Source: an uncultured Methanosarcinaceae archaeon
GTDB lineage: Archaea > Halobacteriota > Methanosarcinia > Methanosarcinales > Methanosarcinaceae
Length of the DNA: 64,000 nucleotides
Direction: 5' to 3'
NCBI GenBank assembly: GCA_963727895.1
Contig: CAVSHT010000012.1
Location: 288,001 to 352,000, forward strand
Shown here in pieces: positions 23,742 through 24,674 of the stretch. Below the pieces are notes generated by a model. The model made no database searches. It had not been told where the DNA came from and was given only the letters and a program-made list of their open reading frames with translations. Position 1 is the stretch's first letter, and each line of letters begins with the position of its first letter. The position numbers were made by a program, and so were the translations under genes.

Positions 23742-23828
23742 TTAGCAGCAGCAGTCCTGATAACAGAATTTGAAGACTTCAGCTGAATATTGGTAACAGA
23801 CATTGGAATAGAAAATACTGTACATCAT
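23742..23828 (-). CDS. Small Cys-rich peptide, type A (MMYSIFYSNVCYQYSAEVFKFCYQDCCC, 28 aa)
   Basis: Hand translation; GGGGGA RBS upstream; repeated in the array. Confidence 0.82.
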   Translation of the reverse strand: MMYSIFYSNVCYQYSAEVFKFCYQDCCC

Positions 23829-23942
23829 GAGATTATTCCCCCAGAGTTTATAGAGTTTGCTTATTTTAGTTTACATAGATGTTCTGTAAAGGGATCATAC
23901 ATTATGATCACCCACTACAGAAACACGTTAATCACAGATTAA

Positions 23943-24041
23943 TTAGAAAGGCCAGCAGCAGCCACAATCCTGGTAACAGAGCTGGAATATTTCAGCTGCA
24001 TAGGTGTAGCAGACATTGGAATAGAAAATACTGTACATCAT
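23943..24041 (-). CDS. Small Cys-rich peptide, type B (MMYSIFYSNVCYTYAAEIFQLCYQDCGCCWPF, 32 aa)
   Basis: Hand translation; RBS; synonymous substitutions relative to type A. Confidence 0.82.
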   Translation of the reverse strand: MMYSIFYSNVCYTYAAEIFQLCYQDCGCCWPF

Positions 24042-24154
24042 GAGATCATTTCCCCCAGAGTTTATAGAATTTGTTTAGTTTTCGTTACATAGATGTCCGT
24101 AGAGGGATCAGATATTATGATCACCCCTACAGAAACACGTTAATCACAGATTAA

Positions 24155-24241
24155 TTAGCAGCAGCAGTCCTGATAACAGAATTTGAAGACTTCAGCTGAA
24201 TATTGGTAACAGACATTGGAATAGAAAATACTGTACATCAT
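24155..24241 (-). CDS. Small Cys-rich peptide, type A (identical to 23742-23828)
   Basis: Hand translation; RBS. Confidence 0.82.
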   Translation of the reverse strand: MMYSIFYSNVCYQYSAEVFKFCYQDCCC

Positions 24242-24354
24242 GAGATTATTCCCCCAGAGTTTATAGAGTTGTTTATTTTAGTTTACATAGATGTTCTGTA
24301 AAGGGATCATACATTATGATCACCCACTACAGAAACACGTTAATCACAGATTAA

Positions 24355-24441
24355 TTAGCAGCAGCAGTCCTGATAACAGAATTTGAAGACTTCAGCTGAA
24401 TATTGGTAACAGACTTTTGAATAGAAAATGCTGTACATCAT
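24355..24441 (-). CDS. Small Cys-rich peptide, type A' (MMYSIFYSKVCYQYSAEVFKFCYQDCCC)
   Basis: Hand translation; RBS; two synonymous Ser codon changes and N9K relative to type A. Confidence 0.82.
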   Translation of the reverse strand: MMYSIFYSKVCYQYSAEVFKFCYQDCCC

Positions 24442-24575
24442 AAGACTATTTCCCCCAATAATTTATCGACTTTGTTCATCTTTCGTTATACCCTGGTTTT
24501 CTGCAATTGGGAAATATAAAACCTTATGCTCATTCCCTACAGAAACCGTTTGAACTTCTTCTTTTATGAACTGAT

Positions 24576-24674
24576 TTAACAGAGATTAAAGAAGAAGCCA
24601 AAGTTATTTGTAAATGTAAAGCATTGGCTAAGACCAAATCCAAAGCTAATGCTAGGCATGCAGAAACATGACAT
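24576..24674 (-). CDS. Small Phe/Cys-rich peptide (MSCFCMPSISFGFGLSQCFTFTNNFGFFFNLC, 32 aa), first gene of the array
   Basis: Hand translation; same GGGGGAA RBS; followed by the same hairpin as the other units. Confidence 0.72.
   Translation of the reverse strand: MSCFCMPSISFGFGLSQCFTFTNNFGFFFNLC

Follow-up and report, generated by a model that had tools for sequence, protein, structure and literature searches.

Introduction

Tandem genes for leaderless peptides, accompanied by an ATP-binding cassette (ABC) transporter, are a known kind of system from bacteria. The psm-alpha operon of Staphylococcus aureus encodes four phenol-soluble modulins (PSMs) of about 21 amino acids, which are served by the Pmt ABC exporter, and the multi-peptide leaderless class II bacteriocins are represented by aureocin A70 (AurA-D) and garvicin KS. 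Here we describe a locus from a methanogenic archaeon that is arranged in a similar way. It lies in a stretch of 64,000 nucleotides from an uncultured Methanosarcinaceae archaeon (GenBank assembly GCA_963727895.1, contig CAVSHT010000012.1, positions 288,001 to 352,000 of the forward strand), which we refer to as the window and in whose coordinates positions are given. The locus is restricted to the genus Methanosarcina, is unannotated, and consists of three families of micro-peptides, designated A, B and C, beside a pump composed of MacB-type and DUF11 proteins. The peptide families themselves are new.

The locus shares with psm-alpha the tandem genes for peptides of 20-25 amino acids on what would be one transcript, each gene having its own ribosome-binding site, as well as the lack of signal peptides and modification enzymes, the implication of an ABC transporter and a predicted structure consisting of a single helix. 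It differs in that there is no sequence similarity (no Pfam match at E values up to 10) and in that the helices of the Methanosarcina peptides are not amphipathic. Moreover, these peptides are rich in aromatic residues and near neutral, the pump is of the MacB/FtsX type with DUF11 proteins, the host is an archaeon, and export is only proposed. The leaderless bacteriocins provide a second comparison, in which three or four related peptides of about 30 amino acids are encoded side by side without leaders, an ABC transporter is present in the locus, and the sequences diversify fast between strains. Those bacteriocins are cationic and rich in Lys and Trp, whereas the Methanosarcina B peptides mostly carry a charge of -1 to +1 and contain about 30% Phe plus Tyr; no bacteriocin family was matched in Pfam or NCBIfam, no immunity gene was recognised, and we know of no antagonism attributed to the A, B or C peptides. 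By every sequence and physico-chemical test that we ran, the peptides are neither PSMs nor leaderless bacteriocins. Arrays of precursors of peptides that are made on the ribosome and modified after translation (RiPPs), such as those of the prochlorosins and cyanobactins, also contain many near-identical small genes in tandem, and the source genome has a variable Cys-rich tail that recalls them, but the Methanosarcina locus lacks both a leader/core organisation and a conserved Cys pattern, and no modifying enzyme was recognised in its vicinity.

Methanosarcina serves as the principal genetic model among methanogens and is also a key source of methane in digesters, soils and sediments. The locus occurs genus-wide and is represented in the RNA libraries of several environmental studies, yet it has been missed by annotation, and a full-text literature search returned no description of it. 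Small proteins of M. mazei have been catalogued by ribosome profiling (Ribo-seq) and peptidomics, which revealed unannotated small open reading frames (ORFs), some of them for membrane-associated products (PMC11456600). Discarding multi-mapping reads, a term absent from the main text of that study, may cause tandem copies that are nearly identical to go unnoticed. Nocardithiocin "homologs" have been listed for 4 of 10 Methanosarcina genomes (bioRxiv 10.64898/2026.07.27.741052); we draw no link from them to this locus.

Results

Genes of the array

A preliminary description of the window, made from its letters alone, had reported five minus-strand ORFs between 23742 and 24674, and both coordinates and translations matched base for base. 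A sixth gene, of the C type, was located 793 bp downstream of the array, beyond the interval originally described. In order of transcription the genes are:

24576..24674, minus strand: A-type peptide gene, 32 amino acids (MSCFCMPSISFGFGLSQCFTFTNNFGFFFNLC), Phe-rich; ORF with a Shine-Dalgarno (SD) site
24355..24441, minus strand: B-type gene copy 1 (B1), 28 amino acids; ORF with an SD site, profile matches at E values of 1e-10 to 1e-14
24155..24241, minus strand: B-type gene copy 2 (B2), 28 amino acids; ORF with an SD site
23943..24041, minus strand: B-type gene copy 3 (B3), 32 amino acids, with a CGCCWPF tail; ORF with an SD site
23742..23828, minus strand: B-type gene copy 4 (B4), 28 amino acids, peptide the same as B2; ORF with an SD site
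22872..22949, minus strand: C-type gene, 25 amino acids (MFYSISYTKITILIQIIRFRLIYRC), a distant B paralogue; ORF with a GGAGGG SD site

The repeat of about 200 bp that had been noted earlier was recovered by Tandem Repeats Finder (200-bp period, 3.7 copies, 84% matches over 23738-24488). A GGGGGAA SD sequence is present 6-10 nt 5' of the ATG in all five ORFs of the array, and the fifth ORF does encode the same peptide as the third, again as originally reported. An alignment of the copies shows both synonymous and non-synonymous changes as well as a single tail insertion that keeps the frame. The five genes had been treated as one set; four of them are indeed B paralogues, and these are the only B-type copies in the source genome, but the first belongs to a separate conserved family, A. 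The interpretation as a multi-copy peptide operon was supported, as was the statement that no named family could be recognised, since neither A, B nor C matched Pfam or NCBIfam at E values up to 10.

To place the array in its genomic context, we surveyed the whole 3.67-Mb genome for ORFs of 18-45 amino acids that have an SD-like site and in which aromatic residues make up at least 25%. Only 44 such ORFs were found, and the array is the only site at which two or more of them lie on the same strand within 600 bp. As the sole cluster of SD-preceded aromatic small ORFs in the genome, the array is far beyond chance expectation.

Conservation of the locus within Methanosarcina

When relatives were searched, several genomes of the same genus proved to contain tandem B-like ORFs at a spacing of about 200 bp. 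A first B profile, built from 21 peptides, matched 34 of 59 genus genomes with the source genome counted, and in a family-level search it gave just two weak partial matches in 118 genomes of 15 other genera. A broader profile of 68 sequences matched 34 of the 58 other genus genomes and none of the 225 genomes that represented 30 other genera within the order. Two genomes missed by the first profile carry diverged B peptides (of the MSILFEYLCVSKTFNMTWFRYVQC type) in at least 10 copies at the same place. When the B profile was compared with 1.84 billion representative proteins, only nine entries matched; these are 25-58 amino acids long, match at their C-terminal end and are unnamed or called "hypothetical protein", and no larger protein in that collection contains the B unit.

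We then mapped SD-preceded small ORFs over 16 kb of the window around the array, over 17 stretches from genus genomes that measured up to 20 kb (one of them cut by a contig end) and over four further stretches of 10 kb. An array is present in 20 of these stretches, and the gene order A, B(n), gap, C is kept in all 20. The A-type gene was not detected in two of the 20 and is repeated or interleaved in a few genomes; A homologues lead the array in 18 of the 22 loci scanned and number 28 members of 23-32 amino acids. B genes number 2-13 per fetched locus, with up to 16 profile matches per genome. The gap from the last B gene to C measures 772-1009 bp, and a single C-type gene (25-44 amino acids) ends the locus in 19 of 20 cases; in the twentieth the array reaches the end of the fetched stretch, so that C lies out of sight. 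No array was found at loci L071 (genome G057) and L072 (G006), and the FtsX of L072 is a paralogue that is only 55% identical.

This comparison changed the picture of the peptide itself. The preliminary description had proposed a constant N-terminus followed by a variable Cys-rich C-terminus, whereas the unit conserved across the genus is the whole 25-residue core, which most copies carry without a tail. Likewise, "Cys-rich" fits the copies of this genome but is not a trait of the family, in which a B peptide carries anything from 0 to 5 Cys residues and 10 of the 66 unique sequences are Cys-free. The CCC and CGCCWPF tails of the source genome are a lineage feature, and a DCGCCFPW tail resembling that of B3 occurs in one other genome (L010/L037). 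Copy number and sequence of the three families change fast between species. The array is carried by cultured, genetically tractable species, and named records include M. spelaei MC-15, M. hadiensis TD41E1-1 and Methanosarcina sp. T3.

Two further observations concern variation at this position. In two named Methanosarcina-type records (L094:2135-2608 and L096:2145-2609, both on the minus strand), four tandem peptides of 21 amino acids (of the MLDFVIFACNWICDSCFFFCL type) occupy the same position upstream of FtsX and may represent a further diverged or replaced family. Within the window interval 23902-24311, two contigs from RNA library X15 connect array units in another way than the window does (229 bases are skipped in one, and the other steps back by 174, each with 34-37 other letters in between), which suggests that related strains differ in array copy number or spacer content.

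Evidence for protein coding

In order to avoid building the expected gene structure into the search, the B profile was run over stop-to-stop segments of the 20 loci without demanding an ATG or an SD site, and 89 matches were obtained. All but one of them (88/89) have Met as their first residue, at profile position 1. Likewise, 88 of the 89 are preceded by an SD-like 5-mer at -4 to -16, which is the case for 812 of the 11388 ATGs (7.1%) that these loci contain in total. Length is also nearly fixed, with 82 of the 89 matches comprising 24-26 codons and only six exceeding 26 amino acids. In-frame stops within 23 codons are absent from all 71 unique B copies, while the two other frames contain such stops in 55/71 and 51/71.

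We also compared non-synonymous with synonymous substitution rates (dN/dS). For 183 close between-genome B pairs the ratio was 0.30 in frame versus 1.04 and 1.14 in the other two frames; the pairs are non-independent and the figures are therefore descriptive and given without P values. Calculated over all pairs, the ratio (0.59) was saturated, with a proportion of synonymous differences of 0.53, and for this reason close pairs with out-of-frame controls were used. Selection on the peptide had been deduced earlier from synonymous changes inside this one array, which are too few alone; it is the comparison between genomes that supports it. Insertions and deletions gave a concordant result. In related RNA-library contigs aligned to the window, all 10 single-base indels within the array fall in spacers, which make up 51% of it, several of the 10 stemming from one contig. 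The sole indel inside an ORF is a 3-nt insertion at 24667, in A. One frameshifted B copy was encountered, in a single genome (L038). Judged from these sequence patterns, A, B and C are very probably translated genes under purifying selection.

Transcription signals and RNA contigs

The best conserved DNA blocks among 21 related loci are not the ORFs. One of them, 24970-24821, contains a TATA-like element and was matched in 16-19 of the 21 loci; another, 23720-23621, contains a terminator-like hairpin and was matched in 14. The elements identified are:

24892..24903, minus strand: TATA-like promoter element of the A-B operon (GGTATATATAGC); TATATAG invariant and the next C nearly invariant in a 17-locus alignment
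24675..24871, minus strand: putative 5' leader of the A-B transcript, about 197 nt; RNA contig ends at 24870/24871
24495..24548, minus strand: intercistronic stem-loop (TTTCTGTAG...TGCAGAAA) from folding; similar structures at 24290-24338, 24091-24138 and 23878-23926
23676..23702, minus strand: terminator-like hairpin and T-run past the last B gene; 11-pair stem, then TTCTTT
23271..23370, minus strand: conserved block, probable promoter of the C unit; matched in 16-17 of the 21 related loci

In the same 17-locus alignment, a TATATATAGC element within the block 24970-24821 has its first nine bases invariant and its last one nearly so, and the A-B 5' leader contains the conserved motifs AAGTGGCTGA and TTTGGAGG.

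Contigs covering the A-B array and the C unit at 90-99% identity were found in four metatranscriptome libraries from four studies; these contigs are unstranded and may hold DNA. The position 24870/24871 is a contig end in three libraries from three studies, and in library X16 an Illumina adapter follows directly. These ends lie about 26 nt downstream of the centre of the conserved promoter element (TATATATAG), and archaeal TATA boxes are situated at position -26. An archaeal promoter with a 5' end near 24871 fits the contig ends, which we take as a weak hint, and such a 5' end would give a leader of about 197 nt. For the C unit, contigs span 22664-23276, and an X16 contig ends at 23276, just downstream of the conserved block, with the T/A-rich sequence TTTTATTTTATAA just upstream; this block is probably the promoter of the unit. 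The intervals 23309-23710 and 24917-25318 have no contig cover in any of the four libraries, and this absence carries no weight. Summed k-mer depth was about 2600-2700 over the array versus at most 77 in the flanks in X15, and 30-180 versus 1-5.5 in X20, values that are unusable as expression levels.

A stem-loop (TTTCTGCAG...CTGCAGAAA) is present in each spacer of the clade to which the source genome belongs, and a consensus of 16 segments contains 10 pairs, three of them with compensatory double changes. The hairpin is specific to this clade, with 19 of 93 spacers matching a strict pattern. It is absent from compact arrays, whose spacers measure 51-58 nt, and it is not essential, because those arrays do without it. 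Folding z-scores for whole spacers were weak (median -0.55), so that only the local hairpin of this clade is supported, and an Rfam search over 22400-26200 gave no match up to E = 1.

Properties of the peptides

The B peptides contain 15.3% Phe, 14.5% Tyr, 7.8% Cys, 6.6% Lys, 1.7% Trp, 0.2% Gly and no Pro, and in many of them a Cys lies beside the C-terminus. The A peptides contain 28% Phe, 12% Leu, 9% Asn and 9% Gly, and include a run of FFF. Net charges are mostly between -1 and +1: of the 66 unique B peptides, 51 have 0 or +1, and of the 23 A peptides, 18 are at zero or below. AlphaFold2 run with family alignments predicted a single helix for B3 (residues 3-25; mean predicted local distance difference test score, pLDDT, 70.6), with a tail of low confidence and no assigned secondary structure, and a single helix for A (residues 8-31; mean pLDDT 68.9), such models being weak for peptides this short. 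On the Wimley-White octanol scale, insertion was favoured for 23/23 A peptides, 18/18 C peptides and 71% of the 66 B peptides, and on the interface scale the median sums were -4.4 to -7.8 kcal/mol; both scales credit aromatic residues. In a protein-feature atlas, B was nearest to fragments of major facilitator superfamily (MFS) transporters at 0.87, which is below the 0.9 mark and thus a lead only, and A had no usable match. Prediction of an A + B complex scored 0.02 against a mark of 0.32, a value that speaks neither for nor against such a complex.

The adjacent MacB/DUF11 cluster

Upstream of the array and divergent from it is a cluster of transporter and surface-protein genes, of which the window contains:

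26121..29551, plus strand: divergent cluster with a DUF11/CARDB surface protein (26121-27356), a MacB/FtsX permease (27398-28612) and an ABC ATPase (28649-29551), assigned by Pfam
25631..25945, plus strand: what remains of the first ABC ATPase, now decayed; the intact ATPase from a relative matches by tblastn with 31% identity across 106 amino acids (E 3.6e-11)

The remnant has no intact frame except a 99-amino-acid ORF without a Pfam match. In relatives the full cluster consists of an ABC ATPase, a DUF11/CARDB protein, the MacB/FtsX permease, an ATPase and a second DUF11 protein, followed on the other strand by a MEDS histidine kinase. The cluster is adjacent and divergent to the array in 16 of 17 fetched genus loci, the seventeenth being cut by a contig end, and in both of two further loci. 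Among named records, 19 loci combine an FtsX of at least 70% identity with 4.5 kb or more of upstream sequence, and 16 of them have an array 3-4 kb upstream of that gene. The 43 loci whose FtsX falls below 70% identity, mainly from Methanolobus, Methanohalobium, Methanomethylovorans and more distant cluster copies of Methanosarcina, yielded no array. The opposite flank, which here encodes a class II lysyl-tRNA synthetase, is not shared among loci. PMC5898192, considered as a source on DUF11, deals with DUF116 and not DUF11 in the passage concerned.

The interval between the array and the ABC cluster includes a block, 25421-25620, that is the most widely conserved intergenic DNA (14-19 of 21 loci) despite the decayed ATPase beyond it. 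It probably represents the promoter and 5' leader of the ABC/DUF11 operon.

Discussion

Proposed function of the peptides

The data establish or strongly support a conserved operon whose tiny genes are translated and have strong ribosome-binding sites; it is represented in RNA libraries and adjoins a MacB-type pump. At the same level of support, one promoter serves a transcript with one A gene followed by a variable number of B genes, each with its own SD sequence, and a hairpin terminator at the end, while a separate unit about 0.8 kb downstream encodes one C-type peptide. For the function of its products, we favour a tentative reading in which the peptides are leaderless and membrane-active, are handled by the neighbouring pump, and resemble PSM-alpha and the leaderless bacteriocins in working principle; we assign this reading a probability of roughly 0.4. 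The reading is suggested because the peptides have no signal peptide, leader or nearby enzyme, are of membrane-spanning length and are aromatic. In this scheme, the peptides would be made in large amounts, leaderless and unmodified, and each, as a predicted single helix of about 24 residues, would partition into membranes. MacB-type pumps expel peptides and lipophilic molecules from the membrane, and the divergent MacB-type ABC pump with its DUF11 surface proteins may extract or expel the peptides from the membrane to the cell surface, where they could act on neighbouring cells or on the producer's own envelope or aggregate. Sequence and copy number diversify quickly, but size and composition are retained; a fixed fold may therefore matter less than bulk physical properties or a changing target.

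Several observations weigh against this proposal. The peptides are roughly neutral, unlike the cationic leaderless bacteriocins, and their helices are not amphipathic like those of PSMs, since the hydrophobic moment (at 100 degrees) did not exceed that of shuffled sequences (P 0.66 for the window B peptides, family median P 0.35). The Kyte-Doolittle scale does not mark B as a classical transmembrane segment, the best mean over 19 residues being 0.60. A functional link between peptides and pump is inferred from position only; it consists of neighbourhood within one genus, where synteny is inherited anyway. The genome with locus L071 has the cluster with no array nearby, and the cluster of the source genome itself has a decayed first ATPase and lacks the second DUF11 gene (29552-30425). 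The RNA contigs show neither the strand nor the level of transcription. Finally, the readable supplementary tables accompanying the M. mazei small-protein study (PMC11456600) contain none of the A, B and C motifs that we tried, from which the variants of that strain may differ, and the conserved leader motifs are likewise absent from those tables.

Alternative explanations

Small membrane proteins may also remain in the producing cell as accessory subunits of a larger membrane complex, as VraH does for VraDE and AcrZ for AcrB. The A, B and C peptides could serve the MacB-type transporter, or a different membrane complex, as subunits or regulators, a role with which their single predicted helices of membrane-spanning length, their favourable Wimley-White partitioning, their constant place beside the transporter and the proximity of B to MFS transporter fragments (the lead at 0.87) would all be compatible. 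We nonetheless consider it unlikely, given that B is present in 2-16 fast-changing copies per genome, which is unexpected for a stoichiometric subunit, that three peptide families are kept together, and that B falls to 20-50% identity while FtsX holds 70-90%.

The preliminary description had pointed to RiPP or metal-binding peptides, and also to bacteriocin-like, signal or fibril-forming ones, which may still apply. As for RiPPs, some classes typically have their precursors in multi-copy arrays, an ABC transporter lies next to the genes here, and the tails of the source genome together with the Cys near the C-terminus of many B peptides could supply cross-links, with the modifying enzymes encoded elsewhere in the genome. 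This idea is improbable. There is no leader/core split, all 25 residues being conserved, and there is no conserved Cys pattern, as the Cys-free B peptides illustrate. No peptide-modifying enzyme (radical-SAM, YcaO, Lan-type or similar) was present among the 55 window ORFs scanned by Pfam out of 76 of at least 90 amino acids. The suggestion of metal binding is weakened in the same way by the lineage-specific occurrence of the Cys-rich tail and the range of Cys content.

Tandem repeats are also a feature of type I toxins, such as Ldr or Ibs of E. coli, in which membrane peptides are restrained by antisense RNAs. The small hydrophobic peptides described here are encoded in tandem direct repeats, and the RNA contigs, being unstranded, would be compatible with antisense transcripts. 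Against such a system are the single conserved promoter and single terminator for the whole array, by which the repeats are not independent units, the spacers of 51-58 nt in compact arrays, which leave no room for a promoter per unit, and the strong SD sites on 88 of 89 copies; we regard it as slightly less probable still than RiPP precursors. Antisense-paired small-protein RNAs (spRNAs) have been reported in M. mazei (bioRxiv 10.1101/2025.10.28.685009), and in the accessible part of that preprint no spRNA is tied to this locus. One candidate described there, spRNA33 with its "three sORF boxes", was rejected as an equivalent, being of unrelated sequence and lying between MM_2375 and MM_2376 with different neighbours.

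A more speculative outcome, to which we give comparably little credence, is that the exported peptides (about 30% Phe plus Tyr in B, 28% Phe in A) would self-assemble with the DUF11 proteins into an aromatic-stacked extracellular material. Very large amounts would be secreted without signal peptides, with expulsion by the MacB-type pump, to form an archaeal counterpart of PSM functional amyloid that might shape the cell aggregates typical of the genus, or even serve extracellular electron exchange with syntrophic partners.

That the repeats function as structured or sponge-like non-coding RNA with incidental ORFs is very improbable: the compensatory changes in 3 of 10 pairs of the clade's spacer hairpin and the better conservation of the 5' leader and promoter than of the ORFs would agree with it, but frame-specific purifying selection, the fixed ORF length, the Met and SD site on 88 of 89 copies, the avoidance of ORFs by single-base indels, the lack of the hairpin in many arrays and the negative Rfam search (up to E = 1) all stand against it. 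A leader-peptide attenuator of an aromatic amino-acid operon was rejected, as the FFF run of A is followed by peptide genes and a terminator and not by a biosynthetic gene.

Returning to leaderless, membrane-active peptides, the locus would, if they are indeed exported and act on membranes, be the first PSM-like or leaderless-bacteriocin-like system described in methanogens, and it would bear on competition, aggregation or the interaction of these archaea with syntrophic partners. Because cultured, genetically tractable species carry the array, the question is directly testable. Even with another function, the locus illustrates that near-identical tandem micro-genes can evade gene callers and, probably, read-mapping pipelines.

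Other features of the window

Three consecutive plus-strand ORFs at 17321-19795 (PocR+PAS, 362 amino acids; PAS, 206; PAS, 118) look like one sensor protein split by frame breaks. At 39165-40796, a 132-amino-acid Na/H-exchanger fragment followed by separate TrkA_N and TrkA_C ORFs looks like one Kef/Trk-type transporter gene in pieces. ORFs of 144 amino acids with HTH_23 matches are found at 13843-14277 and 45146-45580, the first also matching an InsA-like zinc-ribbon and HTH_28, and the two appear to be copies of the small ORF that comes first in an insertion sequence. Finally, the minus strand of 52535-56272 carries a methanogenesis-marker cluster (McrC-like, DUF2113, BadF/BcrA-type ATPase, DUF2112 and DUF2102), which fits a methanogen.

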